DNA from: a bacterium
Lineage (GTDB): Bacteria > Oederibacteriota > JAJYGY01 > DAIDJD01
NCBI GenBank assembly: GCA_035485275.1
Contig: DATHOE010000034.1
Location: 93,677-157,676, forward strand
DNA length: 64,000 bases
Reading direction: 5' to 3'
Below the pieces are notes generated by a model. That model made no database searches, was not told the origin of the DNA, and worked only from the letters and a program-made list of their open reading frames with translations. The position numbers were made by a program, and so were the translations under genes. Of this stretch, positions 1,561 through 57,185 are shown piece after piece (within the stretch, counting starts at the first letter, position 1; the number at the start of each line of letters is the position of its first letter).

Positions 1561-2283
1561 TTGGTGACGGGCGCCACTTCCGTGCTGGGAAGGGCGCTTT
1601 TGCGCCGGCTCTGGGCGGACCCCGCCTGGGCCGGCTTTGTTTTTTACCTGGTGGGGAGGGATGGCTCCGCGCTGGAGGCCCTGTGCCTGGAGGCCGGGGC
1701 CGCCGGACGCGGGGCCGAGGCCCTGGCGCTGGACCTGGCCGAGCCCTCCGCCGGGGAAGCCTGCGCCCGCGCCCTGGCCGCGGCCCCTCCGCTGGGAGGC
1801 TTCGTGTTCGCGGCCGGAAGCGCCCAGGACCAGGTCCTGCCGCTGATGGCCGAAGCCGCCTTTGAGCGGGTGCTCAGGGTGAACCTGGGCTTCCACGCCG
1901 GACTGCTGAAATTTTTCCGCGGACCCGGCCGCCTGGCCCCCGGCGCCCGCGGCCTGCTGGTTGGGTCCAACTCCGGCTTGCGCGGCCAAAAAGGCCAGGG
2001 CGCCTATGCCGCGGCCAAGGGAGGCCTGGTGGACCTGCTGGCCCTGGCCCCCCCCGGCCTGAGGATCAACGTGCTCCTGCCGCCCCTGATGCCCTCGCCC
2101 TTCCTGGACGCGCTCAAGCCCGCGGCCCGCGCGGAACTCTACGGGGCGCGCCTCATGGAGGACCCCGACCCGGCGGCCTCCTGCGCCGAGGCGGCGCTCT
2201 TCCTCCTGTCCGACCGCGCTTCCTACATACACCGCCAGGTCATCCACGCCGACAGCCGCGTGGGCGCCCTGGGCTGGGACTGA
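1561..2283 (+). CDS. SDR-family oxidoreductase (FabG-like ketoreductase)
   Basis: Rossmann N-terminus VTGATSVLGRAL, catalytic YxxxK in GAYAAAKGG, about 240 aa; TTG/GTG start 14 nt after trxA stop. Confidence 0.75.
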   Translation: MVTGATSVLGRALLRRLWADPAWAGFVFYLVGRDGSALEALCLEAGAAGRGAEALALDLAEPSAGEACARALAAAPPLGGFVFAAGSAQDQVLPLMAEAAFERVLRVNLGFHAGLLKFFRGPGRLAPGARGLLVGSNSGLRGQKGQGAYAAAKGGLVDLLALAPPGLRINVLLPPLMPSPFLDALKPAARAELYGARLMEDPDPAASCAEAALFLLSDRASYIHRQVIHADSRVGALGWD

Positions 2284-2289
2284 GGCGGC

Positions 2290-3408
2290 ATGCCCGTGCG
2301 CGTTTTCATCACGGCGCTGGGGCGCGTCAGCGCCCCCTTGGACGGCTCCGGGCTGGCCCCGGACCCGCGCCTGCAGGGCCGTTTGAGCGCGCGCCTGGAT
2401 GTGGAGGCCCGCCCGGGCGAACCCCGTTTGCACGCCCTGGCCCGCCTGGCGGCGGAAGCGGCCCTGGAAGGGGCTCCGGGGATCGGGCGCCTGGCCGCGG
2501 AGGAGAAGGGCGTTTTCCTGTCCTCCAGCAAAGGGGGCATGGAGATCTTCGATACGGCCCATCCGGACCCGGGCCCAGCCCTGTGGCGTTTTTTGAGCTC
2601 CAGCCCCGGCCAGGCGGTGCGCGACGCGCTGGGCTGGCGCGGCGGCGGGCGCAACAGCCCCCTGGCCTGCGCCACCGGCGCCTACGCCATCGGGCTGGCC
2701 TTTGAGGACATCCGCGCCGGGCGCCTGAGCGCGGCCCTGGCCGGCGCGGCCGAGGCCTCCTTGACCCCCTTGGTGGCGGCTTCCTTCGCCAGGCTGGGCG
2801 CGCTGTCCCCGGCGCGGGATCCGGCCGGCCTGCGCGGCCCCTTCGACCGCCGGCGTTCGGGCTTCGTGCTGGGCGAGGCCGGGGCGGCCCTGCTGCTGGA
2901 AAGCGAGGCAAGCCTGGCCCGCACGGGGCATAGGCCCCTGGCGGAGTTCAAGGGATGGGCCTGCACCTGCGACGCCTGGCACCTGACCTCGCCCCTGCCC
3001 TCGGGCCGCCAGGCCGCCCGTTGCATGCGCCTGGCCCTGGAGCGCGCGGGCCTGGCCCCCAGCGACATCGCCTACGTCAACGCCCACGGCAGCGGCACCC
3101 CGGCCGGCGACCTGGCCGAAGCCGCGGCCCTGCGCCAGGTCTTCGACGCCGCATCCGGTCCGAGGCTCAGCTCCATCAAGGGGGCCACGGGCCACACCTT
3201 GGGGGCTTCGGGCGCCCTGGAAGCCCTGGTCACGGTGCGGTCCCTGGAGCGCGGGACGCTGCCCGCGAACAGCTTTTGCCGCGACCCCATGCCCGAGCTG
3301 GCGCCCTGGCTGGCCCTGGAAGCCGAGGCCCTGCGCCCGGGCTCCGCGCTGTCCCTGAGCATGGGCTTCGGCGGGCACAATGTGGCGCTGGTCTTTTCCC
3401 GCGCCTGA
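2290..3408 (+). CDS. beta-ketoacyl-[ACP] synthase, elongating FabF/FabB-like (compact, 372 aa)
   Basis: Cys-His-His triad contexts PLACATGAYAIG, NAHGSGTPAGD, GATGHTLGASGALEA; C-terminal GFGGHNVALVF. Confidence 0.85.
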   Translation: MPVRVFITALGRVSAPLDGSGLAPDPRLQGRLSARLDVEARPGEPRLHALARLAAEAALEGAPGIGRLAAEEKGVFLSSSKGGMEIFDTAHPDPGPALWRFLSSSPGQAVRDALGWRGGGRNSPLACATGAYAIGLAFEDIRAGRLSAALAGAAEASLTPLVAASFARLGALSPARDPAGLRGPFDRRRSGFVLGEAGAALLLESEASLARTGHRPLAEFKGWACTCDAWHLTSPLPSGRQAARCMRLALERAGLAPSDIAYVNAHGSGTPAGDLAEAAALRQVFDAASGPRLSSIKGATGHTLGASGALEALVTVRSLERGTLPANSFCRDPMPELAPWLALEAEALRPGSALSLSMGFGGHNVALVFSRA

Positions 3409-3421
3409 AGCGGAGCTTGCG

Positions 3422-4588
3422 ATGTCCTGGACCGAAGAACTCGAGCTCGACCTTGAGGAGACCCAGTCCAAGGGGCTGCGCCGCAGCCTGCGCGTGTGCG
3501 CGCATCCTGAGGGCCCGCGCATCCGCCTCGATGGAAGGGAACTGGTCCAGTTCGCCAGCAACAACTACCTCGGCCTCAGCGCGCATCCCCAGGTCCTCGC
3601 CGCGGCCAAGGCGGCCCTGGACGAATACGGGGCCGGCGCCGGCGCATCGCGCCTGGTGGGCGGCGGCAGCCTGATGATCCACGCCGCGCTGGAGCGCGAA
3701 TTGGCGCGCTTCAAGGGCATGCCCTCCGCGCTCGTCTTCGCCACCGGCTCCTTGGCCAACCTCGGCCTGCTGGGGACCCTGGCCGGGCCCGAGGATGTCG
3801 TGGTCCTGGACAAGGCCTGCCACGCCACGCTCTACGACGGCGCCCGCCTGTCCGGGGCCGGGCTGGCGCGTTTTCCGCACCAGGACCTGGCCCGTTTGGA
3901 CGCCCTGCTGGCCGAAAAAAGCAAGGGGGCCCGGCGGACCATCGTGGTCGTGGAGGGCGTCTATTCCATGGACGGGGACATCGCGCCCCTGCCCGAGCTC
4001 CTGGAGCTTACGGCGCGCCACCGGGCCCTGCTGGTCGTGGACGAGGCCCATTCCACGGGGGTGCTGGGCGCTGGCGGCCACGGCATCCTGGAGCACTACG
4101 GCTTGGCCGCCCCCGAAAACCTGATCCTGAGCGGCACGCTGAGCAAAGCCCTCGGGAGCCTGGGGGGCTATGTGGCCGGGCCCCAGGTCCTGGTCGACAC
4201 CCTGGTCAACCACAGCCGCGCCTTCATCTACGCCACCGCCTTGCCGGCCTCCTGCGCCGCGGCCGCGCTGGAGGCCCTGCGCCTGATCGAGAAGGAGCCC
4301 GGGCACCTGCAGCGGCTGCGTGTCGTGCGCAAGGCCTTGGCCGAGGGTTTGACGGGCTTGGGCTGGGACTTCGGCCGTTCCCAGAGCCCCATACTCCCCA
4401 TTTTGGTGGGCAGGGCCGCGGCCGCGCTGGCCCTGGAACAAAGGCTTTTGGGGCAGGGATTTTATGTGCCGGCCATGCGGCCGCCGACCGTGCCCGCGGC
4501 CGCCTGCCGCCTGCGCCTGAGCGTGGGCGCCGCCCACGACCTGGGGCAGGTCGAGGCCTTGCTGGCCGTCCTGGGGAAAAAACCATGA
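3422..4588 (+). CDS. bioF: 8-amino-7-oxononanoate synthase-like alpha-oxoamine synthase (BioF-like)
   Basis: PLP-dependent AOS motifs NNYLGL, VDEAHSTGVLG, PLP-lysine in GTLSKALGSLGGYVAG; ATG at 3422 is residue 15 of ORF 3380; adjacent to bioD. Confidence 0.75.
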   Translation: MSWTEELELDLEETQSKGLRRSLRVCAHPEGPRIRLDGRELVQFASNNYLGLSAHPQVLAAAKAALDEYGAGAGASRLVGGGSLMIHAALERELARFKGMPSALVFATGSLANLGLLGTLAGPEDVVVLDKACHATLYDGARLSGAGLARFPHQDLARLDALLAEKSKGARRTIVVVEGVYSMDGDIAPLPELLELTARHRALLVVDEAHSTGVLGAGGHGILEHYGLAAPENLILSGTLSKALGSLGGYVAGPQVLVDTLVNHSRAFIYATALPASCAAAALEALRLIEKEPGHLQRLRVVRKALAEGLTGLGWDFGRSQSPILPILVGRAAAALALEQRLLGQGFYVPAMRPPTVPAAACRLRLSVGAAHDLGQVEALLAVLGKKP

Positions 4589-5208
4589 GCCCGGCAGCGC
4601 TGGCCTCCCTGGTCCGGGGCCCCGGTTATTTCGTCACGGGGACGGACACGGGCGTGGGCAAGACCTGGGTGGCCTGCCGTCTGGCGGAAACGGCGAGGGC
4701 GCGCGGGCTGCGTGTGGGCGTGTTGAAGCCCGCGGAGAGCGGCGGAGGCGGCGACGCGGCGGCCCTGAAAAAAGCGTCGTCCTGCCCGCTGCCCCTGGAG
4801 CTCATCCGGCCCTACGCCTTCGGCGCGGCGCTGGCCCCCTCGGCCGCGGCGGCGCTGGAGGGGAGGCGGGTCGCGCTCAAGCCCATCCTGAAGGCCTACA
4901 GGGCCGTGGAGGGCGTCTCGGATTTCACGCTGGTGGAGGGCGCGGGGGGGCTGCTGGTGCCCTACGGACCCGGTCTCGACGGCGCCTCCATTGCCAAGGC
5001 CATGGGCCTGCCCCTGCTCATCGTGGCGCGGCGGGGGCTGGGGACCATCAACCACAGCCTGCTGACTTTGGAGGCCGCGCGCGCGCGGGGCCTGAATGTG
5101 GCGGCGCTGGTGCTCAGCGCCCCGGGCCGCAAGGGCGATAGGTCCGTGGCCGGCAACGCGCGGCAGATCGCGCGTTTGGGCAAGGTGCGGGTGGTGGAAG
5201 CGGGATGA
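4585..5208 (+). CDS. bioD: dethiobiotin synthetase
   Basis: P-loop YFVTGTDTGVGKT, LKPAESG, LVEGAGG, TINH motifs; start overlaps bioF stop (ATGA). Confidence 0.85.
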   Translation: MSPAALASLVRGPGYFVTGTDTGVGKTWVACRLAETARARGLRVGVLKPAESGGGGDAAALKKASSCPLPLELIRPYAFGAALAPSAAAALEGRRVALKPILKAYRAVEGVSDFTLVEGAGGLLVPYGPGLDGASIAKAMGLPLLIVARRGLGTINHSLLTLEAARARGLNVAALVLSAPGRKGDRSVAGNARQIARLGKVRVVEAG

Positions 5209-6365: not shown

Positions 6366-6965
6366 ATGCCTGTGAATAGCCCGCGCCTGACGGCGTTTTT
6401 GATGATCCTCATCTTGGCCGCCCTGTGCCTGTTCCTCACCCCCTTTGTCCAGACCCCGGGGCGTAACAACGGCTACTCACCCCAACAGCCCATAGCTTTT
6501 TCGCACCGCCTGCACGCGGGAATGCTGCAGATCAACTGCCAGTACTGCCACTTCACGGCCGAACGCGGCCCCCACGCCGGTTTCCCGGCCGTGGCCACCT
6601 GCCTGAACTGCCACCGTTTCGTCAAGGGAAGCACCCCCTTCAACCAGGGCGAGATCCAGAAGCTCTACAAGTACGCGGGCCTGGACGCCGACGGGAACCC
6701 CGATCCCAAAGGCAATCCGCAGCCCATCCCCTGGGTCAAGATCCACGTGCTCCCGGCCTTTGTGCGTTTCGACCACAGCCGCCACATCACCCAGGGCGTG
6801 ACCTGCCAGACCTGCCACGGGCCCATCCAGACCATGGACCAGGTGACCCAATATTCGTCGCTGGCGATGGGCTTCTGCGTCAATTGCCACAGGGACGTCG
6901 ACGCCAACGGCCTGCACGGCAAGAAGGTACACGCGTCCCTCGACTGCGCGGTCTGCCACTACTAG
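6366..6965 (+). CDS. actA: Alternative Complex III subunit ActA (membrane-anchored pentaheme cytochrome c)
   Basis: N-terminal TM helix; five CxxCH motifs (CQYCH, CLNCH, CQTCH, CVNCH, CAVCH); first gene of act cluster. Confidence 0.85.
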   Translation: MPVNSPRLTAFLMILILAALCLFLTPFVQTPGRNNGYSPQQPIAFSHRLHAGMLQINCQYCHFTAERGPHAGFPAVATCLNCHRFVKGSTPFNQGEIQKLYKYAGLDADGNPDPKGNPQPIPWVKIHVLPAFVRFDHSRHITQGVTCQTCHGPIQTMDQVTQYSSLAMGFCVNCHRDVDANGLHGKKVHASLDCAVCHY

Positions 6966-6976
6966 AGACTCCAACC

Positions 6977-9900
6977 ATGCCCGATACAAAAAAAACCTAC
7001 TACAAGTCCCAGGCCGAGCGCGAGGCGCTGCTGGATCCGTCCCTGCCGATGCCGGCGCAGATGCAGGAATCCGGCGTCATGGAGGAGAGCCTGGCGGGCG
7101 GGCTGGCCGGGCTCCTGGAGCAGTCCAACGAGCTGCGCATGGACCGGGCCGCCTTCCTCAAGCTGACGGGCTTCAGCTTCGCGGCCGCGGCCCTGGCCGG
7201 CTGCGGCAAGGCCGCTGAAAAGGCCCTGCCCTACCTGGTCCAGCCCGAGGAGGCCATCCCCGGCGTCCCGGTCTTCTACGCGTCGGTCTGCGGCGGCTGC
7301 TCGGCCGGCTGCGGCGTGCTGGCCAAGGACCGCGACGGGCGGCCCATCAAGCTGGAAGGAAACCCCAAGCACCCCCTCAACCACGGCGCCCTCTGCGGCA
7401 TGGGCCAGGCCTCGGTGCTGGGCCTCTACGACACGCACCGGCTGAAGGTCCCGCAGATCGGCGGCCAGGACACGGACTGGGCCTCCCTGGACGCGGCCGT
7501 CATGGGCGCCCTGAAGGACCTGCGCGCCAAGCGCGGCAAACTGCGCATCCTCAGCCGCAGCCTCATCAGCCCAGCCCTGAACGCCCAGATCGCGTCCTTC
7601 GTGGCCGCCCACCCGGGCGCCAAGCACGTGGTCTACGACCCCCTGTCCGCCTCGGCCATCCTCGACGCCCACCAGGAGACCCACGGCCGCCGGGTCCTGC
7701 CCCACTACCGCTTCGATCAGGCCGAGGTGATCGTCGGCTTTGACGCGGACTTCCTGGGCACCTGGATTTCGCCCGTGGAATTCGCCGGCGCCTACCAGAG
7801 CGGCCGCAAACTGCGCGGGCACGAGGGCCGCTTCTCCAAGCATTTCCAGGTCGAATCCGGGCTCACCGTGACGGGCAGCAAGGCCGACGAGCGGGCCACG
7901 GTGCGGCCCAGCGAGATGACCCTGGCTTTGGCCCACCTGGCCGTGAAGCTGGGCGCGCCCTCGGACTGGACCGGCAGGGGGGCCAACCCCATCGGCGCGG
8001 TCAATGCCGTGGACTCCGGCCGCCTGGACGCCATGGCCAAGGCCCTCAAGGCCGCGGGTTCCAAGGGCCTGGTGGTCTGCGGATCCCAGGATCTCAAGGC
8101 CCAGCTGATCACGAACTGGATCAACCACCGCCTGGGCGCCTACGGCACCACGCTGGACGTCAAGCGCCCCTCGCTGCAGCGCCAGGGCGACGACCTGGCC
8201 GTGGCCGCCCTGATCGAGGAGATGGGCAAGGGCCAGGTGCAGGGCCTCATCGTGCTCGACGGCGATCCCGTGGCGGAACTGCCCCAGGGGCAGGCCTTCG
8301 CCGACGGGATGAAGAAGGTCCCCTTCACGGTCAGCCTGGCATTGGCGGACGACGACACCGCCTCGCTGTGCGGCTTCCGCGCGCCGGACAACCATTGGCT
8401 GGAATCCTGGTCCGACGCCGAACCCATCGCGGGCATGGTGGGCCTGGCCCAGCCGGCCATACGGCCCTTGTACAAGACCCGGCAGGCGCTGGAAAGCCTG
8501 GCCGCCTGGCAGGGGAAGGACGGCCTGGCCCTCGACCTGCTGAAGGCCTTCTGGAAGTCCCACGTGTTCCCGGCGGCGGGCAAGGGCCTCTTCTTCGACG
8601 CCTTCTGGGACAGCACGCTTCAGGCCGGCTTTGTGGACAAGGCCGGCGACGCGCAGGGCGCCTCCGGGGATTTCCGCGAGCCGAAGATCGGCGGCCTGAA
8701 GGCCTCCTCCGACGGCATGGAAGTCGCCTTCTACCCCAAGATCGCCCTCCAGGACGGCCGCCACGCGGTCAATCCCTGGATCCAGGAGCTGCCCGACCCG
8801 ATCAACAAGATCTCCTGGGACCAGACCGTCGCGGTGAACGCGGACACGGCCAAGAACCTGGGCCTGGAGGAGGGCGACACGGTCCGCCTCAGCGCGCAGG
8901 GCACGGGCACGGTCCTGGAGCTGCCGGTGCACGTGCAGCCCGGGCAGGATCCGCGCACCTTCAGCGTGCCCATGGGATACGGCCGCGCCGGCACCGAGCG
9001 CTTCCACGACATCGGCCCGCGCTGGCTCCTGAACGTGCCCGTGGTGGACAAGGGCCAGCGCCTGGGCGTGAACGTGGCCGCCCTGGCCGACCCCTCCGAC
9101 GGCCGGCCCAAGTGGCACCGCTCCGGCGCCTCCGTCTCCAAGACCGGCGACAACGTCATGCTGGCCTGCACCCAGATCCACCAGACCCTCGACCTCCCGG
9201 CCTACATGGTCCCCCAGGCCGGCCCGCGCGTGCCGGCCGTCCAGGAGATGACCCTGGAGGAGTTCCGCAAGGGCGCCGAGGCCGAGCGCATGGATCCCGC
9301 GGGCAGCCTTTACAAGGACAGGGAATTCACCGGCCGCCGCTGGGCCATGGCGGTGGACCTGACCGCCTGCAACGGCTGCTCCGCCTGCGTGATCGCCTGC
9401 CAGATCGAGAACAACGTCCCGGTGGTGGGCCGCGAAGAGGTGCGCCGCGCCCACGAAATGCACTGGATACGCATCGACCGCTACTACCACGACGGCCCGG
9501 ACGGGCTGGAGACCATCAGCCAGCCCATGATGTGCCAGCAGTGCGGGCACGCCCCCTGCGAGCCGGTCTGCCCGGTGGCCGCGACCACGACCAACGCCGA
9601 AGGGATTAACCAGCAGGTGTACAACCGGTGCGTTGGCACGCGCTATTGCGCCAACAACTGCCCCTACAAGGTGCGGCGCTTCAACTGGTTCGACTATCCC
9701 GCCGTGTCCGGCTCCGAGACCTTGACCCTGAACCCGGACGTCACGGTGCGTTCGCGCGGCGTGATGGAGAAGTGCAACTTCTGCGTCCAGCGCGTGCAGG
9801 AGCAGAAGGCGGAGGCCAAGCGCGCCGGCCGCGGGGACGCCATGGACGACGGCGAGATCAAGACCGCCTGCCAGCAGACCTGCCCGGCCCAGGCCATCAC

Positions 9901-10033
9901 CTTCGGCGACATCAACGATCCCAAGAGCGCGGTCTCCCTGCTGGCCGGCGACGTGCGGGCCTTCAAGGTGCTGGAGGACCTCAACACCCGGCCCGCGGTG
10001 AGCTACCTGGCCCAAGTCCGAAACAAGAGCTGA
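6977..10033 (+). CDS. actB: Alternative Complex III subunit ActB (molybdopterin-oxidoreductase-like domain fused to 4-cluster FeS domain)
   Basis: About 1019 aa; C-terminal Cys clusters CNGCSACVIAC, CQQCGHAPCEPVCP, CVGTRYCANNCP, CNFCVQRV; Tat-like segment DRAAFLKL followed by LAGC. Start taken at first ATG (6977); true start uncertain. Confidence 0.85.
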   Translation: MPDTKKTYYKSQAEREALLDPSLPMPAQMQESGVMEESLAGGLAGLLEQSNELRMDRAAFLKLTGFSFAAAALAGCGKAAEKALPYLVQPEEAIPGVPVFYASVCGGCSAGCGVLAKDRDGRPIKLEGNPKHPLNHGALCGMGQASVLGLYDTHRLKVPQIGGQDTDWASLDAAVMGALKDLRAKRGKLRILSRSLISPALNAQIASFVAAHPGAKHVVYDPLSASAILDAHQETHGRRVLPHYRFDQAEVIVGFDADFLGTWISPVEFAGAYQSGRKLRGHEGRFSKHFQVESGLTVTGSKADERATVRPSEMTLALAHLAVKLGAPSDWTGRGANPIGAVNAVDSGRLDAMAKALKAAGSKGLVVCGSQDLKAQLITNWINHRLGAYGTTLDVKRPSLQRQGDDLAVAALIEEMGKGQVQGLIVLDGDPVAELPQGQAFADGMKKVPFTVSLALADDDTASLCGFRAPDNHWLESWSDAEPIAGMVGLAQPAIRPLYKTRQALESLAAWQGKDGLALDLLKAFWKSHVFPAAGKGLFFDAFWDSTLQAGFVDKAGDAQGASGDFREPKIGGLKASSDGMEVAFYPKIALQDGRHAVNPWIQELPDPINKISWDQTVAVNADTAKNLGLEEGDTVRLSAQGTGTVLELPVHVQPGQDPRTFSVPMGYGRAGTERFHDIGPRWLLNVPVVDKGQRLGVNVAALADPSDGRPKWHRSGASVSKTGDNVMLACTQIHQTLDLPAYMVPQAGPRVPAVQEMTLEEFRKGAEAERMDPAGSLYKDREFTGRRWAMAVDLTACNGCSACVIACQIENNVPVVGREEVRRAHEMHWIRIDRYYHDGPDGLETISQPMMCQQCGHAPCEPVCPVAATTTNAEGINQQVYNRCVGTRYCANNCPYKVRRFNWFDYPAVSGSETLTLNPDVTVRSRGVMEKCNFCVQRVQEQKAEAKRAGRGDAMDDGEIKTACQQTCPAQAITFGDINDPKSAVSLLAGDVRAFKVLEDLNTRPAVSYLAQVRNKS

Positions 10034-10036
10034 GGA

Positions 10037-11485
10037 ATGAAACCCATGCAATCTAGCGCAGCGGCCGTGGACGTGGATCCGGCCGATCAATCCTGGGTGG
10101 AGGGGAACAAGACCCTCGGCCAAGTCACCAAGGACATCGGCGACCACCTCGACGGCAAGCCCGGCGAGTGGTGGTGGATCGGGTTCGGCATCTCGCTCCT
10201 GGCCCTGGGCCTGGGCGGCTTCTGCATCGTCTACCTCATGTTCACGGGCATCGGCTGTTTCGGCCTGAACAAGACCATCGGCTGGGCCTTTGAGATCACC
10301 AACTTCGTGTTCTGGGTGGGTATCGGCCACGCCGGCACGCTGATCAGCGCCATCCTCTACCTGCTGCGGCAGCGCTGGCGGACCGCGGTGAACCGTTCCG
10401 CCGAGGCCATGACGCTCATCGCGGTCATGTGCGCGGGCCTGTTCCCGCTCATGCACATGGGCCGGCCCTGGTTCTTCTTCTACCTGGCCCCCTACCCCAA
10501 CACCCGCGGCTCCCTGTGGATGAACTTCCGCTCGCCGCTGGTCTGGGACATGCTCGCCATCTCCACCTACTTCACGGTCTCGCTGGTCTTCTGGTACCTG
10601 GGCCTGATCCCCGACCTGGCCACGCTGCGCGACCGGGCCAAGGGCGTGAAGAAGTTCATCTACGGCATCTTCAGCTTCGGCTGGGACGGCTCCAGCCGGA
10701 CCTGGAAGCACTACGAGCTGGTCTACCTGATCCTGGCCGGCCTGGCCACGCCCCTGGTGCTGTCCGTGCACTCGGTGGTGAGCTCGGACTTCGCCACCTC
10801 GCTGATCCCGGGCTGGCACACCACCATCTTCCCGCCCTACTTCGTGGCCGGCGCCATCTTCTCCGGCTTCGCCATGGTCCTGACCCTCATGCTGGTCGCC
10901 CGCAAGACCATGCACTTCGAGGAGTACATCACCCTGCGCCACATCGAGGCCATGACCAAGGTGATGCTCCTGACCTCCATGATCGTGGGCCTGGCCTACA
11001 TGACAGAGTTCTTCATCGCCTGGTACTCCGGCGACCGCTACGAGCAGCAGCACTTCCTGGTCCGCTTCCTGGGCCCATACGGCTGGTGGGCCTTCATCAT
11101 GTACGGCTGCAACATGGTCATCCCCCAGGTGCTCTGGTTCAAGGCGGTCCGGCGCAACCTGCTCCTGGTCTTCATCATCACGCTCAGCACGAACGTGGGC
11201 ATGTGGTTCGAGCGCTGGGTGATCATCGTCAGCTCCCTGCAGACGGACTTCCTGCCCTCCAGCTGGGAGCACTACCACCCCACGCCCTTCGACTACGGCG
11301 TCACGCTGGGCAGCTTCGGGCTCTTCTTCACCGTGTTCCTGCTCTTCGCGCGCTTCCTGCCCATGATCGCCATCGCGGAGATCAAGCACGAGGTCGCCCA
11401 CGGCGGCGCCCCCCACGGCGAGCATGAGGCCCACGGGGCCCACGCCGCAGCCGCGCTGCCGCGCGCCGAAGCGGAGGCCGTATGA
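10037..11485 (+). CDS. actC: Alternative Complex III subunit ActC (NrfD/PsrC-like quinol-interacting membrane subunit)
   Basis: Polytopic membrane protein with NrfD-like helices (FEITNFVFWVGIGHAGTLISAILYL...); ATG 3 nt after actB stop. Confidence 0.8.
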   Translation: MKPMQSSAAAVDVDPADQSWVEGNKTLGQVTKDIGDHLDGKPGEWWWIGFGISLLALGLGGFCIVYLMFTGIGCFGLNKTIGWAFEITNFVFWVGIGHAGTLISAILYLLRQRWRTAVNRSAEAMTLIAVMCAGLFPLMHMGRPWFFFYLAPYPNTRGSLWMNFRSPLVWDMLAISTYFTVSLVFWYLGLIPDLATLRDRAKGVKKFIYGIFSFGWDGSSRTWKHYELVYLILAGLATPLVLSVHSVVSSDFATSLIPGWHTTIFPPYFVAGAIFSGFAMVLTLMLVARKTMHFEEYITLRHIEAMTKVMLLTSMIVGLAYMTEFFIAWYSGDRYEQQHFLVRFLGPYGWWAFIMYGCNMVIPQVLWFKAVRRNLLLVFIITLSTNVGMWFERWVIIVSSLQTDFLPSSWEHYHPTPFDYGVTLGSFGLFFTVFLLFARFLPMIAIAEIKHEVAHGGAPHGEHEAHGAHAAAALPRAEAEAV

Positions 11486-12012
11486 CGCGCCGTTTCGTGG
11501 TCGGCTACTTCGAGGCGGACTCCGCGGCGATCAAGGCCGTCAAGGCCCTGCGCGCGGAAGGCTGGCAGATCTACGACGTCTTCACGCCCTACCCCGTGCC
11601 GGGCATGGACGAGGCCATGGACCTGCCCCATTCCTTCCTGGGCTGGGTGGCCTTCATCAACGGCATGGGCGGGGCCCTGGGCATGCTGGCCCTGGCGCTC
11701 TTCGTGTCCGTGATCGCCTGGCCGCTGAACGTCGGCGGCCGCCCCGACGCGTCCATACCCGCCTTCTTCCCGCCGGTCTTCGAGGCGGGGGTCCTGAGCG
11801 CGGGGGTGACCGTGGTCCTGGCCCTGTTCTGGGTCTGCGACCTCTGGCCGGGGAAGACCGCCAAGCTGGACCTGCCCCGCAGCACGGACGACCGTTTCGC
11901 GGTGGTGCTGGACGCCGACCAGTCCCCCCACGCGGGCGACAGGATCATCGGCGCGCTGAAAGCCCAAGGCGCGGTCGAAGTGGGTGAACAATCCGTCCGG
12001 GAGGCGCTGTGA
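11482..12012 (+). CDS. actD: Alternative Complex III subunit ActD (DUF3341-like)
   Basis: MTRRFVVGYFEADSAAIKAVKALRAEGWQIYDVFTPYPV N-terminus and two C-terminal TM helices; start overlaps actC stop. Confidence 0.75.
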   Translation: MTRRFVVGYFEADSAAIKAVKALRAEGWQIYDVFTPYPVPGMDEAMDLPHSFLGWVAFINGMGGALGMLALALFVSVIAWPLNVGGRPDASIPAFFPPVFEAGVLSAGVTVVLALFWVCDLWPGKTAKLDLPRSTDDRFAVVLDADQSPHAGDRIIGALKAQGAVEVGEQSVREAL

Positions 12013-13319
12013 ACAAGTGGGGCTTCCTGAACATACTCTTGGCGGGCGCTCTGGCTTTCGTGCTGCTGCTGCTGGCGGCCATGCACACCAACCCCAACAA
12101 GCGCAACCATTACTGGCTCCAGGGCATGGACGAGAGCCCGGCGCCGGCGGACTTCTCGGACAACCCCAATTTCGCCAACGGCCAGACCCTGCAGATGCCC
12201 CCGGACGGGACCCTGGCGCAGGGGGAGCAGCGCTATCCCTACGCCGGCGGCATGGACGAAGCCATCCGCGCGGGCAAGGCCCTCAAGAACCCCCTCGACC
12301 CCAACGACCCGCAGGTCCTGCTGAGGGGCAAGATCCTGTTCGAGCGCAACTGCATGCCCTGCCACGGCGTGGCCGGGCGCGGGGACGGCCTGGTCACGGC
12401 CGCCCGCCGCGCGGGCGGCTTCCCGCCGCCCCCCAGCCTGCTGGCGGCCCACGCCAAGGGGCTTCCGGACGGCTACATCTACAACTACATCTCCCGCGGC
12501 GGCATCCTGATGCCCTCCTACGGTGCCCAGATCAACCCCCAGGAGCGCTGGAAGGTGGTCTCCTGGGTCCGGCACATGCAGAAGAGCTTCCCCGAGGCCC
12601 TGCCCGCCACGGGCACGGCGCAGGCCAACGACGAGGCGGGACTGGTGCCCTCCACGACCCCCGGCTTTGACTACGACGGCCAGCCTCCGGTCGACGAGAT
12701 CGAGGCCAACGAGGCCCTGCAGCAGGCCACCATCGAGAACCGGGGCGAAGCCTCGGAGACCGACATGCCCCCGGCCATGGTGGCAGCGGCGGCGGCCGCC
12801 GCCGCGGCGTCAGCCGGGGCCGGAGGGGGCACCCCCTGGCAGCAGGCCCTCGTGGTCATCAACAAGAACGACTGCTTCACCTGCCACAACCCGGACCACA
12901 AGGTCATCGGGCCGGCCTTCAAGGACGTGGCCAAGCGCTACTACAGCCGGCAGCCCGGCATCATCCCGATCCTGGTGGCGAAGGTCAAAGCGGGAGGCGC
13001 GGGCAACTGGGGCCAGGTGCCCATGGCGGCGCACCCCAACACCTCGGACGCGGACCTGACGACCATCGTGAAGGGCATCCTTTATCTGGCCGACCCCAAG
13101 GGCAAGGGGACCAGCTCCATGGCCCCGAGCATGAAGCGGGTCATGGAACTGGTCCATTCCGGGGCGCCCATCCACTGCCCCGCCCTGGGCGCCGAAGCCA
13201 TCAACGGCCCGGCCTTCCTGACCGAGCGCGAGCCCCTGCAGGCCGAAGTGCGGCGCGTCAGCGGCCCGGACCTGGCCGCCCTGGGCCCAGGATCCGTTGA
13301 CCAGGAGACGAAACCATGA
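12009..13319 (+). CDS. actE: Alternative Complex III subunit ActE, extended diheme form (two c-type cytochrome domains joined by a poly-Ala linker)
   Basis: N-terminal TM helix; CMPCH with downstream ILMPSYG (Met ligand); poly-Ala linker AMVAAAAAAAAASAGAGGG; second domain CFTCHNPDHKVIGPAFKDVAKRYY...WGQVPMAAHPN; GTG start overlapping actD stop. Confidence 0.75.
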   Translation: MNKWGFLNILLAGALAFVLLLLAAMHTNPNKRNHYWLQGMDESPAPADFSDNPNFANGQTLQMPPDGTLAQGEQRYPYAGGMDEAIRAGKALKNPLDPNDPQVLLRGKILFERNCMPCHGVAGRGDGLVTAARRAGGFPPPPSLLAAHAKGLPDGYIYNYISRGGILMPSYGAQINPQERWKVVSWVRHMQKSFPEALPATGTAQANDEAGLVPSTTPGFDYDGQPPVDEIEANEALQQATIENRGEASETDMPPAMVAAAAAAAAASAGAGGGTPWQQALVVINKNDCFTCHNPDHKVIGPAFKDVAKRYYSRQPGIIPILVAKVKAGGAGNWGQVPMAAHPNTSDADLTTIVKGILYLADPKGKGTSSMAPSMKRVMELVHSGAPIHCPALGAEAINGPAFLTEREPLQAEVRRVSGPDLAALGPGSVDQETKP

Positions 13320-14482
13320 GCGAGGCCGCCTTGCCTAAAGATCTGCTTTCCCCGGGCCGGAAGCGCGGCCTCCTGGCCCTGGTGGTCCTGGGGGTCGTGA
13401 CCCTGCTGATTGGGGCCGCCATGGACTGCGCCGGGGTCTATTCCGGGGTCCTGATCGGCTTCCTGTTCATCATCGACCTGGGCCTCGGCGGGGTCCTCTT
13501 CGTCGTGATCAACAACGCCGCGGCCGCGCGCTGGGACGCCGTTTTTCGGCGCGTCCCGGAGGCCATGGCCACCACCCTGCTGGGCAGCGCCGGCCTGGTC
13601 CTGGTCTTCCTGTGGGCCGTCAGCCACGTCTATCCCTGGGCCCGGCCGGGCTTCATGGACAACCCGATCCCGGAGCTGGCCGGCAAGAAGGACTGGCTGA
13701 GCGTGGGCTCCTTCTCCTCGCGCGCCCTGGTCTACGTGGCCATCTGGACGGGCATGCTGTGCGTCATCCTGCGCAAGTACTGGGCCCAGGACCGCGACGG
13801 CGTCGACCGCACCACGATCATCCGCAGGCTGTCCATGCTCTTCCTGGTCCTCTTCGCCTACAGCTTCTCGCTGGCCTGCTTCGACTGGCTCATGTCCCTG
13901 GAGCCGACCTGGTACAGCGCCATCTTCGCCGTCTATTGCTTCGGCGGCGTCATGCAATGCGGGCTGGCGGTCACGCTCCTCCTGGTCCTGTACCTGGACG
14001 CGAAGGGCGTCTTCCAGGACAAGCTGCGGGAACAGCACCTGCACGACCTGGGCAAGTGGATGTTCGCCTGGAGCGTCTTCTGGGCCTACATCTGGTTCTT
14101 CCAGTACATGCTCACCTGGTACGCGGACCTGCCCGGCGAGAACCAGTATTACCTTTTGCGCTCCGGGCACTGGGCGTGGATGATGGTGGCGGTGGTGGTC
14201 GGGCGCTTCGCGGTGCCCTTCTTCGGGCTGGCCTCCCAGCGGGTGAAGAAGGACCGGCGGGTGCTGGCGACGGTGGCCGCGGTCGTGATCTTCGCGCAGT
14301 GGCTGGACCTGGTCCTGATGGTCCTGCCCTCCCAGGGCACGATGCGCAACCCTTTCGCCCTGCTGCTGCCCCTCGCGACGGGGGCCGGCTTCGTGCTGCT
14401 GTTCTTCAGGGCCTTCCGCGGCCGGCCCGCCCTGCGCCCGGCGGACGCGGCCATGGCATACAGCAGCCGCTATCTGACCTAG
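13316..14482 (+). CDS. actF: Alternative Complex III subunit ActF (NrfD-like membrane subunit)
   Basis: Polytopic membrane protein after actE with overlapping start; hydrophobic helices throughout. Confidence 0.75.
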   Translation: MSEAALPKDLLSPGRKRGLLALVVLGVVTLLIGAAMDCAGVYSGVLIGFLFIIDLGLGGVLFVVINNAAAARWDAVFRRVPEAMATTLLGSAGLVLVFLWAVSHVYPWARPGFMDNPIPELAGKKDWLSVGSFSSRALVYVAIWTGMLCVILRKYWAQDRDGVDRTTIIRRLSMLFLVLFAYSFSLACFDWLMSLEPTWYSAIFAVYCFGGVMQCGLAVTLLLVLYLDAKGVFQDKLREQHLHDLGKWMFAWSVFWAYIWFFQYMLTWYADLPGENQYYLLRSGHWAWMMVAVVVGRFAVPFFGLASQRVKKDRRVLATVAAVVIFAQWLDLVLMVLPSQGTMRNPFALLLPLATGAGFVLLFFRAFRGRPALRPADAAMAYSSRYLT

Positions 14483-14516: not shown

Positions 14517-14744
14517 ATGGGAGACATAGGTTTTCCGGAATTGATGGTCATCTTGGTGATCGCCCTGGTGCTCTTCGGGGGCGGGAAGCTGCCCGAGGTG
14601 GGCCGCTCCCTGGGATCGGCGATCCGCGAGTTCAAGAACGCCATGCGGGACGTGGATCCGACCAAGGACGTGAAGGCGGACGCCAAGCTGGTGGACGCCA
14701 AGGTCGTGGACAAGGACAGTGGTTCAAAAGACCAGCACGCCTGA
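14517..14744 (+). CDS. tatA: twin-arginine translocase subunit TatA/E
   Basis: 75 aa; N-terminal TM helix MVILVIALVLFGGGKLPE followed by amphipathic helix SLGSAIREFKNAMRD. Confidence 0.85.
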   Translation: MGDIGFPELMVILVIALVLFGGGKLPEVGRSLGSAIREFKNAMRDVDPTKDVKADAKLVDAKVVDKDSGSKDQHA

Positions 14745-15456
14745 GGATCCCACCCTCTTTGAGCACCTGTTCGAGATACGCACCCGGCTGATCCGCTGCC
14801 TGGCGGTCTTCCTCGGCGCGAGCCTTGTTTGTTACCTGCGCGCCGGGGACATGTTCGACTTCCTTGCCGCGCCTGCGGAGGGCCATCTGGTCTTCACCCA
14901 CCCGGTGGGCGCCATGATGGCCTACATGAAGCTCGGCTTCATGGCGGGCCTGATCGTCTCCTCCCCCTATATTTTCTACCAGGTCTTCGCCTTCCTGCAG
15001 CCGGCCATGAACCCGGCCTGGCGCCGCACCGTGACCCTCAGCCTCGTGGTCGGCTACCTCCTGTTCGGCCTGGGGGTGGCCTTCTCCCTCAAGACCCTGC
15101 CCCTGGCCATGCATTTCCTGCTGTCCTACGCCCGTCCCGGCCTGCAGGCCATGATCAACGTGGACCAGTACTTCAGCTTCGTCTTCCTGATCACCTTCGG
15201 CAGCGGCTTCGCCTTCGAGATGCCCCTATTGATGTATTTCCTGGCCGCGGGAGGCTTCATCAGCAGCGCCACCCTGGTCAAGCAGTGGCGCATGGCAATC
15301 ATGGCCTGCCTGATCCTGGGGGCCGTGATCTGCCCCACGCCGGACCTGGTGACCTGGGCCCTGGTGTGCCTGCCCCTCTTCGGGCTCTACCTGGTCAGCA
15401 TCGGGGTGGTGCGCTGGGCCGAGGGGGCGCGGAGGAAGCGCGTGGAGACGGCCTAG
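14719..15456 (+). CDS. tatC: twin-arginine translocase subunit TatC
   Basis: LFEHLFEIRTRLIRCLAVFL..., six predicted TM helices, about 245 aa; GTG start overlapping tatA 3' end. Confidence 0.85.
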   Translation: MVQKTSTPEDPTLFEHLFEIRTRLIRCLAVFLGASLVCYLRAGDMFDFLAAPAEGHLVFTHPVGAMMAYMKLGFMAGLIVSSPYIFYQVFAFLQPAMNPAWRRTVTLSLVVGYLLFGLGVAFSLKTLPLAMHFLLSYARPGLQAMINVDQYFSFVFLITFGSGFAFEMPLLMYFLAAGGFISSATLVKQWRMAIMACLILGAVICPTPDLVTWALVCLPLFGLYLVSIGVVRWAEGARRKRVETA

Positions 15457-45824: not shown

Positions 45825-46169
45825 AATTCAACCCGCTCCGAACATGCCCCGATCCGGGGCGTAAGGGTTTCCTTGGCCCGGCGTCATTGCCGTATTTTGG
45901 CCCAAATGGCGGGCAAAGGGGCAGGCCCCCTCTTGCCTTAATCGCCCAAGCCAAGCCCGGCCGAACACAAGGTGCCGCTATTCTTGGCTGAACCGGCCTA
46001 GCTTAACACGTGGCCCAGTCCGAATCCTCTAGTTTTTTTCGTGGATTCGGCGAACCGTTGCAGGTCCCAACTACGTTGCATCCGAACTAGGATACGCATA
46101 TTGAGATTGAAATCCCGGACTGCGCCTGAGATAAAAGCCGCAAGCCCCGCGCACGGAGGACCACCGATC

Positions 46170-47045
46170 ATGCCGAAACTTAAATTCGTCCGGGAGTTCC
46201 TTAAGAAAATCTCACCAGTCTGGAGCTTCTTTCGATTCCTCAAACACAGGGTTTTCCTGCCGCTAGTGCAGCGCAGCACTTTGAACGTCCTCGAAACGTT
46301 TCCGGTCTGTGCGCCGGCTGGGGCGGGGGGCTACGGGCCGAGGGCCGAGATCACGATCCGAGGCATTAACCAGCTTCTTCCGGGCTTATATTCGTTAGCG
46401 ATTTTGAACGGGGCAAAAGGGATAGAGCCGCGGTCTGCGGAAGGATGGCCGTTTCCTGAGGGAGATTTGGAAACCATAAAGGCTTTGGAGGCCTGCCTGG
46501 CGAAATTTGGAACAAGAAAGGATCCGCCGTACCTCAGGCTTTACGGGCACATTTTTAAAGACAGGGAACAAATAGAAACGGTTCTGGAAATCGGGATCGG
46601 ATCGAATAACCCCAGCATCGTCTCAAATAACCTGGGGAGCGCGGCGCCCGGCTCCACGCTTCGTGGCCTCAGGGATTTCCTTGGCGGCGCCCGGATTTAT
46701 GGGGTGGATGTGGATACCGACATTCTATTCACAGAGGACCGCATTCAAACCTATTTTGTAGACCAGACGGATCGGGCCTCCCTGGAGGCTCTGGGCCGGG
46801 AGCTGCCTGACGCCTTTGACCTGATCATCGACGACGGACTACTTGCGCCTGTGGCGGATCTGCCAACATTGAATTTCTCACTCGCGCGCCTCCGGATTGG
46901 GGGATGGCTGGTGGTGGAGGAAATTCCTGGTCGGGCCCTTGTTTTCTGGAAGGTCGTAGCCACGATGCTGGCTTTGTCGTTTAAAGCGACCATTCTCTCC
47001 AATGATGATGACAGTCTTATTTTTGTGGTCGAAAGAAAATACTAA
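46170..47045 (+). CDS. hypothetical protein, methyltransferase-like Rossmann fold (lower-GC gene)
   Basis: VLEIGIGSN ... RIYGVDVD ... LIIDDG pattern; ATG at 46170 (residue 44 of ORF 46041). Confidence 0.5.
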   Translation: MPKLKFVREFLKKISPVWSFFRFLKHRVFLPLVQRSTLNVLETFPVCAPAGAGGYGPRAEITIRGINQLLPGLYSLAILNGAKGIEPRSAEGWPFPEGDLETIKALEACLAKFGTRKDPPYLRLYGHIFKDREQIETVLEIGIGSNNPSIVSNNLGSAAPGSTLRGLRDFLGGARIYGVDVDTDILFTEDRIQTYFVDQTDRASLEALGRELPDAFDLIIDDGLLAPVADLPTLNFSLARLRIGGWLVVEEIPGRALVFWKVVATMLALSFKATILSNDDDSLIFVVERKY

Positions 47046-52114: not shown

Positions 52115-53370
52115 GAATATCCGCGGCCCTGCTGTACGCGGTCGCTTTCATGGCCCAATACCATTTTTTGATGGTCCCCCATTTCGGCTATTGGGGCTTC
52201 GGGGACCTCAGCGGCGTCCTGGAGTGCCTTTATCTTCTGCCTTTGATGGTGGCGCCGGCCCTGTGCATGCCCGAGCGGATCGACCGCCCGTCGGCGCTGT
52301 TCGCGTTTTTGAACTACACGATCATCTATGTGCCCGTCTGCGTGCTGCTGTTCCATTCCACGCTGACGTCGATCAGCCTCGCGGACCAATGGGCGATATT
52401 GATCGCCTTGGCCGCCAGCACTGCCTTGCTCTTTGAGGTCCCGCGTTTGCCCTCCATCCCCCTGCGCCGGGGCAGGCTGAGCGGGGGCGCGATTCTGGCT
52501 GCCTGCTGGTGCGTGCTGGGCGCGGTGGTGCTGATGACCCTCGCCGTCAACAGGATCGGGTTCTTCGGGTTCAAGGGGATCGGAGCCGCCAGGGCCGCCT
52601 ACACGGAAAATATCCGCCCTCTGGGCCCCTATTTCGGGTACTTCGACGCCTGGTGCGGCCTGGCGATCATCCCTTTCCTGTTCGTGGTCTGTTTAAGGAA
52701 AGACCGCCGCTGGGGCTGGCTGCTCCTGAGCGCGGTGTGCGTGCTGCTGTTCATGACCTCGGGGCGCAAGACCGCCCTGCTCACGCCCTTGGCGGTTTTG
52801 GGCAGCTATTTCGGGGTGAAGAAGGGTCTCAGGACCCCGGCGCTTTTGTTCGTGTTTTCGGGCCTCTTGCTGGTCCCCTTCGTCTTCGGGGCCCTCGGGC
52901 TCTCGGGCCCCCGCGACCTATACTACAATGTCATCAATTTCAGGATCTTCGCGGTGCCACAGATCCTTATCCCGCAGTATTACAGCTATTACCTGGCCAA
53001 CGGATTCACCCACTTCCGCAGCATCAATGTGGTCAACCGGTTTTTCTTTGGAGGGGCGGCGTTCGAGCAGCCCTGGGCCGCCATCGCCCGCTTCTATTAC
53101 AAGAAAAAATTCACGGCCGATGCCGTGTTCTATGCGACCGACGGCCTGGCGGCCTTGGGCATCGTGGGGATCCCCTGCGTGACCGCGGCTTGCGTTTTGG
53201 TTTTTTGGATCTTTGATTCCCTGCAAAAGGGGCATTCCGCGCTGTTGATGCTCCCCTGCATGATGCCCTTCCTTTTTTCGTTGTTCAACAATTCGCTGTT
53301 TACTACGATGCTCACCGGCGGTGGCTTCGTGCTGATGGCGCTGTTCTATCTGCTTCCGGATACCGCGTGA
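52105..53370 (+). CDS. polytopic membrane protein, putative Wzy-type polymerase
   Basis: 421 aa, about 10 TM helices, follows Wzx-like gene with overlapping start. Confidence 0.5.
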   Translation: MPLRISAALLYAVAFMAQYHFLMVPHFGYWGFGDLSGVLECLYLLPLMVAPALCMPERIDRPSALFAFLNYTIIYVPVCVLLFHSTLTSISLADQWAILIALAASTALLFEVPRLPSIPLRRGRLSGGAILAACWCVLGAVVLMTLAVNRIGFFGFKGIGAARAAYTENIRPLGPYFGYFDAWCGLAIIPFLFVVCLRKDRRWGWLLLSAVCVLLFMTSGRKTALLTPLAVLGSYFGVKKGLRTPALLFVFSGLLLVPFVFGALGLSGPRDLYYNVINFRIFAVPQILIPQYYSYYLANGFTHFRSINVVNRFFFGGAAFEQPWAAIARFYYKKKFTADAVFYATDGLAALGIVGIPCVTAACVLVFWIFDSLQKGHSALLMLPCMMPFLFSLFNNSLFTTMLTGGGFVLMALFYLLPDTA

Positions 53371-57149: not shown

Positions 57150-57185
57150 TGTCATTCGGTCAATTAGCGGGCGTCGGGTTGAAAC

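Follow-up and report, generated by a model that had tools for sequence, protein, structure and literature searches.

The actE gene of this bacterial act operon encodes a non-canonical protein, an ActE with additions, in which the ActE heme domain is followed by a long alanine-rich linker, a second monoheme domain of the c551/c552 type and a conserved C-terminal tail. ActE is the small heme subunit of alternative complex III (ACIII), a respiratory complex of bacteria that oxidises quinol, and cytochromes like the second one normally serve as freely moving electron shuttles. An ActE-c551 fusion of this kind is rare but genuine, a variation on a design already known. A built-in electron carrier is the best-supported mechanism, by analogy with other carriers and from the logic of the domains: the c551 domain would be a tethered shuttle that takes electrons from the ActE heme to an acceptor, a reading to which we give a probability of about 0.6. 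In the window (the whole stretch of DNA that was analysed, 64,000 nucleotides), the operon and the parts of the protein lie as follows:

6366..6965, + strand: actA, 199 amino acids with five CxxCH motifs (translation; cytochrome c7/c3 families)
6977..10033, + strand: actB, 1018 amino acids, molybdopterin-like and 4Fe-4S subunit
10037..11485, + strand: actC, NrfD-type membrane subunit (PF03916, 3e-24)
11482..12012, + strand: actD (PF11821 ActD, 1.3e-45)
12009..13319, stop codon included, + strand: actE, diheme fusion protein of 436 amino acids (uninterrupted reading frame; identical JGI gene call)
12024..12086, + strand: N-terminal hydrophobic helix of ActE, residues ~6-26, membrane anchor (sequence LNILLAGALAFVLLLLAAM; AF2)
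12090..12593, + strand: ActE proper, N-terminal arm and monoheme domain, residues 28-195 (PDB and Pfam matches)
12594..12836, + strand: linker, residues 196-276, 81 amino acids (composition; low AF2 confidence)
12837..13094, + strand: c551/c552-type class-I cytochrome c domain, residues 277-362 (PDB, profile, Foldseek)
13095..13316, + strand: conserved C-terminal tail, residues 363-436, 74 amino acids (conservation, dN/dS)
13316..14482, + strand: actF, membrane subunit of 388 amino acids (operon position; multi-helix and hydrophobic, no Pfam match)
14517-14744, + strand: tatA (PF02416), directly after actF
14719-15456, + strand: tatC (PF00902), after tatA

The initial annotation had described actE as one gene for a diheme protein, and on this point it is borne out. 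No internal stop codon is found in the translation of the 436 codons of 12009-13319 (+). Its GTG start codon shares GTGA (12009-12012) with the actD stop, its stop codon shares ATGA (13316-13319) with the actF start, and gene prediction by JGI on the source contig gave an identical gene. An artefact, in which a missed stop or an error of sequencing or assembly had joined adjacent actE and c551 genes, is already refuted, and no point in its support was found. A missed stop or frameshift between the domains was looked for and is absent, identical architecture is found in at least 14 independent assemblies, purifying selection in this frame spans the linker and the tail, and neither a signal peptide nor a start context stands upstream of the second domain. 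CxxCH motifs number two in the protein: the first, CMPCH, spans residues 115-119 (nt 12351-12365), and the second, CFTCH, spans residues 289-293 (nt 12873-12887). Its length is about twice the usual one, as had been claimed: across ~75 cluster representatives monoheme ActE measures 181-310 amino acids, mostly 186-230. A canonical ActE (monoheme, ~160-210 amino acids) differs from it in both length and heme count.

The N-terminal half is ActE because of its operon position and its homology. The operon reads actABCDEF-tatA-tatC with actE between actD and actF, and monoheme ActE of the solved complexes (6F0K, 6BTM, 6LOD chain E) holds the same place and has a homologous arm and His/Met heme domain. 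Against the PDB this half matches 6f0k_E (E 3.4e-17, residues 51-194), 6btm_E (E 1.3e-13, residues 30-191) and 6lod_E (E 1.7e-9), while PF13442 and PF00034 match residues 106-190. In 14 homologues ActE proper has 59 invariant columns, among them CMPCH and M168-P169, from which a His/Met ligation motif is predicted with Met168 (nt 12510-12512) as the axial residue. The CMPCH domain is therefore a genuine ActE, as first annotated. In the solved complexes the ActE heme is presumed to be the last of the ActA-ActE wire, and likewise here. Compared with the monoheme ActE of R. marinus, F. johnsoniae and R. castenholzii, the fusion has twice the length, a second heme domain and the tail. The anchor also differs: in all three solved ACIII complexes ActE is held by a lipid on an N-terminal lipobox Cys, whereas here there is a transmembrane helix (AF2 places a helix at residues 3-27, pLDDT 85-90), with no lipobox Cys and no Cys at all before residue 115. 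A lipobox is missing from the monoheme relatives L085 and L086 too, so that it is a lineage-dependent feature of ActE.

In the case of the second domain the initial annotation was right in part. It had assigned residues of about 270-436 to a class-I cytochrome c; the cytochrome is there, at 277-362, but the last 74 residues form a separate conserved tail that had been overlooked. The domain matches 2d0s (E 9.8e-18) and 1a56 (E 1.2e-15) in the PDB, a profile search gives E 9.4e-28, and PF00034 reaches 22.8 bits on the isolated C-terminal half (cut-off 21.3). Its AF2 model (pLDDT 73-89) superimposes in Foldseek on 2d0s, 3zox, 1ynr and 351c with TM 0.73-0.78 and rmsd 2.6-2.8 A, and a second CxxCH domain devoid of a cytochrome fold is thereby excluded. 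There are 31 invariant columns in the 14 homologues, including C289, C292, H293, P338 and M339, with the CxxCH close to the N-terminus of the domain and the axial Met339 (nt 13023-13025) in a Pro-Met loop some 45 residues further on. Identity to the c551/c552 proteins of Hydrogenophilus (2D0S), Nitrosomonas (1A56) and Pseudomonas (351C) is 40-45% over ~78 residues, and the CxxCH motif, the Pro-Met ligand loop and the four-helix fold are common to this c8 family and the domain, which is basic (net +3, pI ~9). The difference lies in the setting: free c551/c552 is a periplasmic protein of ~80 amino acids, whereas here the domain is no free soluble protein but an internal part of a membrane-anchored 436-residue complex subunit, in its C-terminal portion and ahead of the 74-residue tail. 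All of the 80 matches listed from a scan of species-representative genomes match the c551 domain only, and none of these 80 is a full-length relative of the fusion. The closest c551 relatives among the matches listed are Bacteroidota lipoproteins with an Ala-rich tether of their own (L003, 9830-10255), 52% identical in the heme domain.

Full-length homologues (n=14, 377-448 amino acids) occur in separate assemblies of independent metagenomes (JGI, ENA, Logan, NCBI); the order of parts is unchanged in them, and identity ranges down to 48%. Against the 79%-identical homologue dN/dS is 0.20 for the N-terminal arm, 0.25 for the ActE heme domain, 0.35 for the linker, 0.15 for the c551 domain and 0.14 for the tail; these values are from the closest pair only, synonymous sites being saturated in more distant homologues. 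With dN/dS of 0.14-0.35, each of the five regions is under purifying selection. Other ACIII operons carry ActE-c551 fusions that lack the tail (P0020, P0022, P0024, P0026), of which P0024 and P0026 have short linkers of ~15-20 amino acids; in L084 and in L082, which carries P0022, a tail-less fusion occurs with an ActB that is only ~52% identical. The homologues at 48% identity, the distant tail-less forms and dN/dS below 0.4 together indicate that the fusion is old and maintained.

The linker had been annotated as alanine-rich and of low complexity, and this description holds: it is 26% Ala and 10% Pro, has a net charge of -12 with a single K/R, and includes a run of nine alanines (residues 259-267, nt 12783-12809). 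AF2 gives pLDDT <50 for residues 213-273, which predicts disorder, and searches of Pfam and NCBIfam with the isolated linker matched no family. Among homologues its length varies 2.5-fold in the clade, from 37 to 93 amino acids, at 20-57% Ala and 10-19% Pro, and only 2 columns are invariant in the 14 homologues. The linker is more than a mere spacer, since in the subclade of the window it includes a moderately conserved stretch (STTPG[FY]...). An anchor, a long Ala/Pro-rich linker and a monoheme domain, in this order, make up the plan of a tethered carrier, and the ActE fusion has all three. Cytochrome cy, the R. castenholzii lipoprotein c551 and the Bacteroidota c551 (L003) are built to the same plan, with a linker that is flexible and Ala/Pro-rich. 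In R. capsulatus the cytochrome cy linker has 69 amino acids, of which ~45 residues suffice for respiration (PMC7876108), and the linker described here lies in the range of that 69-residue one. What sets the fusion apart from carriers of the cytochrome cy type is that the donor subunit itself serves as its anchor, in place of an isolated helix or a lipid, and that it has the extra tail. A long, exposed stretch of low complexity could also be a place for cutting a precursor, which would free the c551 domain and tail into the periplasm much as FbcH of Bradyrhizobium, a cytochrome b-c1 precursor, is cleaved. Such a polyprotein is very improbable here, since no cleavage motif is conserved in the linker (the 2 invariant columns), a fused form would bring no advantage over two genes, and the forms with only ~15-20 linker residues (P0024, P0026) occur.

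For the tethered shuttle, the path of electrons would begin with menaquinol, which would be oxidised at ActC. As in the solved complexes, electrons would travel by way of the [3Fe-4S] cluster of ActB and the five hemes of ActA to that of ActE. A hop to the tethered c551 domain would follow, and this domain would swing on its linker to reach, from ActE, a docking site on a neighbouring acceptor. The tether would hold the carrier at the membrane in a 1:1 ratio, and a freely diffusing cytochrome would be unneeded. What speaks for this reading is that the domain belongs by sequence and fold to the c551/c552 carrier family with an invariant heme motif and Met ligand, and that the linker is biased in composition, variable, poorly conserved and modelled with low confidence. 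Small class-I cytochromes are experimentally shown acceptors of ACIII, as examples the cytochrome c of R. marinus and the lipid-anchored cytochrome c551 of R. castenholzii, and in Melioribacter the ACIII-cox cluster includes a c551/c552 gene (PMC3534657).

A further comparison is with F. johnsoniae, where electrons are proposed to reach the oxidase from ACIII by way of a shuttling N-terminal sixth-heme domain of ActA (PMC8552683, PMC5928083). There too a subunit of ACIII carries an additional monoheme cytochrome c domain on a tether, but at the N-terminus of ActA, whereas the c551 domain is on the C-terminus of ActE, and the two domains belong to different cytochrome families. The ActA described here has no extra sixth-heme domain and so is not of the F. 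johnsoniae type; as it has five hemes only, the role of the extra heme is vacant. Identity of the c551 domain with the F. johnsoniae module was considered and rejected, with the heme-motif region alone aligning (E 0.02-0.11). The two look like independent solutions.

The acceptor of the shuttle would most likely be a heme-copper oxidase without a fused cytochrome c of its own, and another c-type-dependent reductase would be equally possible. It is worth noting that cytochromes of the c551 type have further partners, nitrite reductase and peroxidases among them, and that cd1 nitrite reductase classically receives its electrons from c551. Hence one can picture the tethered domain at a branch point, feeding a periplasmic or membrane reductase and not a heme-copper oxidase; candidates are a nitrite reductase of the cd1 or Cu type, N2O reductase, cytochrome c peroxidase and an extracellular acceptor chain. 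We regard this as possible but somewhat doubtful. In its favour, the operon is away from cox genes: no oxidase genes were found in the 64-kb window, nor in the ~10 kb around the operon of six relatives, and act operons apart from cox genes have been linked to ACIIIs serving periplasmic acceptors (PMC9386147, PMC3534657). The nearest monoheme relatives also adjoin narGHJI. Against it, no such reductase lies within the 64-kb window of the 297-kb contig, and no other acceptor or reductase gene was found there or in the flanks of the relatives (up to 10 kb). The operon is flanked by biotin and fatty-acid-like genes upstream and by tatAC and polysaccharide genes downstream. The actF-tatA-tatC order recurs in the relatives L081, L082, L083, L084 and L089, and the nearest named relatives of ActB are Acidobacteria MAGs at ~50% identity.

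The tail is the least certain part of the mechanism, in which it would probably be a docking or retaining peptide. It follows the pattern S-x-K-x-V-x4-H-S-G-x-P-x2-C-P ... G-P-x2-L ... V-x-R ... E-x2-P, with 12 invariant columns in the 14 homologues, and is confined to this clade. Comparison with Pfam, NCBIfam, PDB and Foldseek folds gave no match. AF2 models of the tail in the full protein and in c551 plus tail have pLDDT ~50 and no readable docking geometry; these used 14 sequences, with which confidence is usable in the two heme domains only. A C-terminal sorting signal or a second transmembrane helix was rejected, the tail being without a hydrophobic stretch. It may affect the actual mobility of the c551 domain and may mediate docking in a supercomplex.

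The tail could even pin the c551 domain in place and make it a fixed seventh heme, not a shuttle. The domain would then be permanently docked on ACIII or on an ACIII-oxidase supercomplex as a static wire, with the linker merely spanning the distance, as the diheme cytochrome subunits of actinobacterial bc1-aa3 supercomplexes act. Twelve invariant positions and a dN/dS of 0.14, a conservation like that of folded domains, fit a binding interface, and the ActE domain has weak matches to QcrC. This arrangement is nevertheless unlikely, because tail-less fusions are maintained in ACIII operons (P0020, P0022, P0024, P0026), linker length varies as described above, and no residue in ActA, B, C, D or F was found to co-vary with the tail. 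In a comparison of tail-bearing with tail-less operons, itself confounded by phylogeny, none of these five subunits offered a usable partner for the tail Cys or His; the sole clade-specific Cys was ActC C63, inside a transmembrane helix. The invariant His-x6-Cys-Pro of the tail (His383, nt 13155-13157; Cys390-Pro391, nt 13176-13181) presumably recalls the Cys-Pro heme-regulatory motif with a nearby His. By that analogy it would be a third ligand or redox site that gates or locks c551 onto a specific acceptor, which could work as a thiolate on a heme or metal or as a reversible disulfide with a partner. We hold this to be quite improbable; if true, a redox tail would make the fusion a self-contained, redox-regulated quinol:acceptor module, undescribed for any complex III analogue.

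The electron exit point of ACIII is still debated, with ActE assumed to be the exit. In Flavobacterium ActE is dispensable, and the tethered ActA domain would do the job there. A classic carrier cytochrome on the C-terminus of ActE, together with a five-heme ActA, would be natural "Rosetta-stone" evidence that electrons can leave through the ActE heme to c-type carriers. It would also suggest that handing electrons over was solved at least two times in evolution, each time on another subunit. For structural and kinetic work and for chimera engineering, the fusion offers a donor and a carrier paired at a defined 1:1 ratio. The organisms that carry it are uncultured, which is a practical limit.

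Other departures from monoheme ActE exist. The literature describes a four-heme "ActE-like" protein in MBNT15 (PMC9386147) and an ActD-ActE fusion in Melioribacter (PMC3534657), and database proteins include multi-heme variants with 4 hemes (P0038/P0056) and 7 hemes (P0055/P0086). ActE is thus a hot spot for domain fusion. These forms have other types of class-I domain or are fused on the N-terminal side, and none of them combines a c551 domain with the tail.

The fused actE gene lies in an operon that can be assigned to an alternative complex III (ACIII), since the neighbours of actE are act genes:

6366-6965: actA, 199 aa, with five CxxCH motifs
6977-10033: actB, a molybdopterin-like part and a 4Fe-4S part
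10037-11485: actC, of the NrfD type
11482-12012: actD (PF11821, E 1.3e-45)
12009-13319, forward strand: the actE fusion, between actD and actF
13316-14482: actF, directly after actE
14517-15456: tatA and tatC, directly after actF

Translation gives one open reading frame of 436 codons with 0 internal stops. Its GTG start overlaps the actD stop (GTGA, 12009-12012) and its TGA stop overlaps the ATG of actF (ATGA, 13316-13319); such overlaps typically mark operon genes whose translation is coupled. The window is part of a 297,763-bp contig in JGI metagenome 3300050821, and JGI gene calling there gives an identical 436-aa gene. Among 5.8 billion protein clusters, a word-indexed search recovered 14 full-length homologues with the same order of parts (377-448 aa, 48-80% identity); their sources are JGI, ENA, Logan and a single NCBI MAG. 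All homologue loci that were fetched (6/6) are actABCDEF operons, followed by tatA-tatC wherever the contig extends. In comparison with a homologue of 79% identity (locus L088), dN/dS is 0.20 in the N-terminal arm, 0.25 in the ActE heme domain, 0.35 in the linker, 0.15 in the c551 domain and 0.14 in the tail, and because it is low in every region, the entire reading frame must be translated and constrained. The initial annotation had described a single uninterrupted gene, and the homologues and dN/dS values bear this out. They exclude a missed stop, a frameshift and a chimeric assembly, and it is hardly conceivable that the fusion is an artefact.

The order actF-tatA-tatC, seen also in the relatives L081, L082, L083, L084 and L089, suggests that export of ActB, which is Tat-dependent, is co-expressed with the complex. 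Within an ActB motif that binds an Fe-S cluster (CQQCGHAPCEPVCP), His858 (9548-9550) is invariant throughout the tail-bearing clade, and four other operons have A, K or N at this position, which is probably phylogenetic signal. Antisense to actB and actC there is a 1493-codon open frame (6962-11443, reverse strand) where JGI calls no gene; it is an expected by-product of high G+C, not a gene.

The protein can be divided as follows:

Residues 6-26: hydrophobic helix (AF2 pLDDT 85-90)
Residues ~28-195: ActE proper, from alignment with solved ActE chains
Residues 196-276: linker, 26% Ala and 10% Pro, with a single basic residue and a net charge of -12
Residues 277-362: c551/c552-type class-I cytochrome domain
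Residues 363-436 (13095-13316): C-terminal tail with 12 invariant positions

The N-terminal half is indeed ActE, as first proposed for the domain with CMPCH: a PDB search matches it to 6f0k_E (E 3.4e-17), 6btm_E (1.3e-13) and 6lod_E (1.7e-9), and CMPCH (115-119) and a Met168-Pro motif are invariant among homologues. By position and homology the product belongs to the ActE family, but it departs from the description of a monoheme, lipobox-bearing protein of about 200 aa. R. marinus, F. johnsoniae and R. castenholzii each have a lipid-anchored ActE, whereas here the lipobox cysteine is absent and a hydrophobic helix is found instead. The proposed Ala-rich, low-complexity linker is also present; it includes nine alanines in a row (259-267), has pLDDT <50 (AF2), varies from 37 to 93 residues in the family, and gave no match when searched in isolation against protein families. 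The second domain, originally placed at about 270-436, has a class-I c551/c552 fold at 277-362 only, the remainder being a separate tail. A profile search supports the fold (E 9.4e-28), as do matches to c552 of Hydrogenophilus (2d0s, E 9.8e-18) and Nitrosomonas (1.2e-15) and an AF2 model (pLDDT 73-89) with TM 0.73-0.78 and rmsd 2.6-2.8 A to c551/c552 structures. CFTCH (289-293) and Pro338-Met339 are invariant, and the domain is basic, with family members ranging from +2 to +6 in net charge. Its sequence, ligands and fold make it a c551/c552 cytochrome, although not a free protein. Among the matches listed, its closest genomic relatives are Bacteroidota lipoproteins with an Ala-rich tether of their own. 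As an example, Hydrotalea sandarakina (L003, 9830-10255) has a lipoprotein c551 with 52% identity to the domain. The proteins encoded there and at similar Bacteroidota loci (L004-L080) are ~140 aa long and consist of a lipobox, a tether rich in Ala and Ser, and a c551 domain; they represent the same tethered module in stand-alone form.

An exhaustive HMMER search with the family profile covered 1.84 billion cluster representatives, with domains assigned by HMMs from the family alignment and by CxxCH counts. The resulting architectures are listed here by cluster representative; the counts are not frequencies, because the search ranking favours two-domain proteins:

ActE, c551 and tail: only the window's own cluster and its fragments
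ActE and c551 without tail: five more clusters (P0020, P0022, P0024, P0026, P0034)
ActE and two c551 domains: one (P0021)
ActE and other class-I domains: P0038 and P0056, both ~584 aa, have four hemes (ActE homologues plus three class-I cytochrome c domains, four CxxCH in total); P0055 (782 aa) and P0086 (793 aa) have seven, both being ActE homologues plus six such domains with seven CxxCH in total; P0074 and P0124 have two
ActD-ActE fusions: ~10
Ordinary monoheme ActE: ~75, of 181-310 aa but mostly 186-230 aa, so that 436 aa is about twice the usual length, as initially stated

For two tail-less fusions the location in an ACIII operon could be confirmed, namely for P0022 (in L082) and for a 299-aa protein like P0026 (in L084, whose ActB has 52% identity to that of the window). 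The next ActB relatives are Acidobacteria MAGs (~50% identity), whose ActE is monoheme (219 and 271 aa). Scanning 185,579 species-representative genomes by pattern gave, among the matches listed, c551-domain matches only, suggesting that the lineage may be absent from that collection. The ActE-c551 architecture is real, conserved and rare. No description of it was found in the searchable literature, a scope outside which the 2013 survey of Refojo et al. falls, and it appears to be undescribed there; the concept is familiar to the field, and for Melioribacter a fusion of ActD with ActE has been noted (PMC3534657).

The nearest monoheme relatives carry narGHJI immediately upstream of the ACIII operon (L085, 2867-9290; L086, 1-6115), and L085 has a 295-aa cytochrome c gene ahead of narG. 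The monoheme ActE of L086 (15085-15900, Acidobacteria MAG GCA_016191085.1) carries a Cys/Met-rich insertion, MNCCKTAMETGMTAGTECCMGMVTAGQSDTAGLPPCCSGMK, between N-terminal arm and heme domain. About 12 database ActE representatives with an insertion there show split domain matches, e.g. P0062, P0064, P0071, P0076, P0095, P0096 and P0101.

In solved ACIIIs, electrons pass from menaquinol to the [3Fe-4S] cluster of ActB, the five ActA hemes and the ActE heme. R. marinus ActE reduces caa3 oxidase, HiPIP (high-potential iron-sulfur protein) and soluble cytochrome c, and the R. castenholzii complex reduces auracyanin and a lipid-anchored monoheme cytochrome. In F. johnsoniae, ActA has a mobile domain at its N-terminus that holds a sixth heme, and oxidase activity does not require ActE (PMC8552683, PMC5928083). 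The ActA in the window has five hemes only, and the F. johnsoniae domain aligns with the c551 domain around the heme motif only (E 0.02-0.11). The cytochrome cy linker has 69 residues, of which ~45 are enough for respiration (PMC7876108); the family's linkers are of the same order. Given the five-heme ActA, a carrier-type cytochrome on a cy-like linker and c551 relatives that are themselves tethered, the most economical reading (probability about 0.6) is that the c551 domain, which hangs from the ActE C-terminus, would act as a tethered shuttle, taking electrons from the ActE heme and handing them to an acceptor nearby. The fusion would work like cytochrome cy, the sixth-heme domain of ActA and the cytochrome fused to caa3 oxidases, but it is a member of none of these groups. 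It would provide evidence from nature that electrons can leave through ActE to c-type carriers, and it would be a second, independent case of a "built-in carrier" in ACIII; it also adds a conserved tail.

This tail, seen in the window's clade only, has 0 matches in Pfam, PDB or the fold library, and its structure prediction is of low confidence (AF2). Its invariant positions include Ser374, Val378, His383-Ser-Gly, Pro387, Cys390-Pro391, Gly400-Pro401 and Leu404, and Glu433 is conserved near the C-terminus within Glu-x-x-Pro. Such conservation suggests that the tail serves as a binding interface; looking for co-varying residues in other ACIII subunits gave nothing usable. An interface of this kind might pin the c551 domain in place as a fixed seventh heme, which we consider doubtful, as fusions lacking the tail are maintained and the linker varies freely in length. 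The invariant His383-x6-Cys390-Pro391 presumably resembles Cys-Pro heme-regulatory motifs and, speculatively, may be a ligand or redox site.

No oxidase or reductase gene was found in the 64-kb window or in the fetched flanks of relatives. ACIII operons not adjoining cox genes have been linked to periplasmic acceptors (PMC9386147, PMC3534657), which makes it a serious possibility, if a tentative one, that a non-oxidase partner takes the electrons. Proteolytic release of the c551 domain is very improbable.

Upstream of the operon (1561-5208) are genes for a short-chain dehydrogenase, a ketoacyl synthase, a BioF-like aminotransferase and a BioD-like protein (AAA_26), a biotin/fatty-acid-type order repeated in L081 and L087 (~53% ActE identity). 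Downstream (15544-63911) are ~48 kb of polysaccharide biosynthesis and export genes, with many GT1, GT2, GT4, GT9 and GT87 glycosyltransferases, Wzx/Wzy/Wzz-like proteins, Poly_export, a carbamoyltransferase, a GDP-mannose dehydratase and acyltransferases, as well as ORFs without a family at 46041-47045, 52105-53370, 57126-59390, 59692-61889 and 62898-63911.
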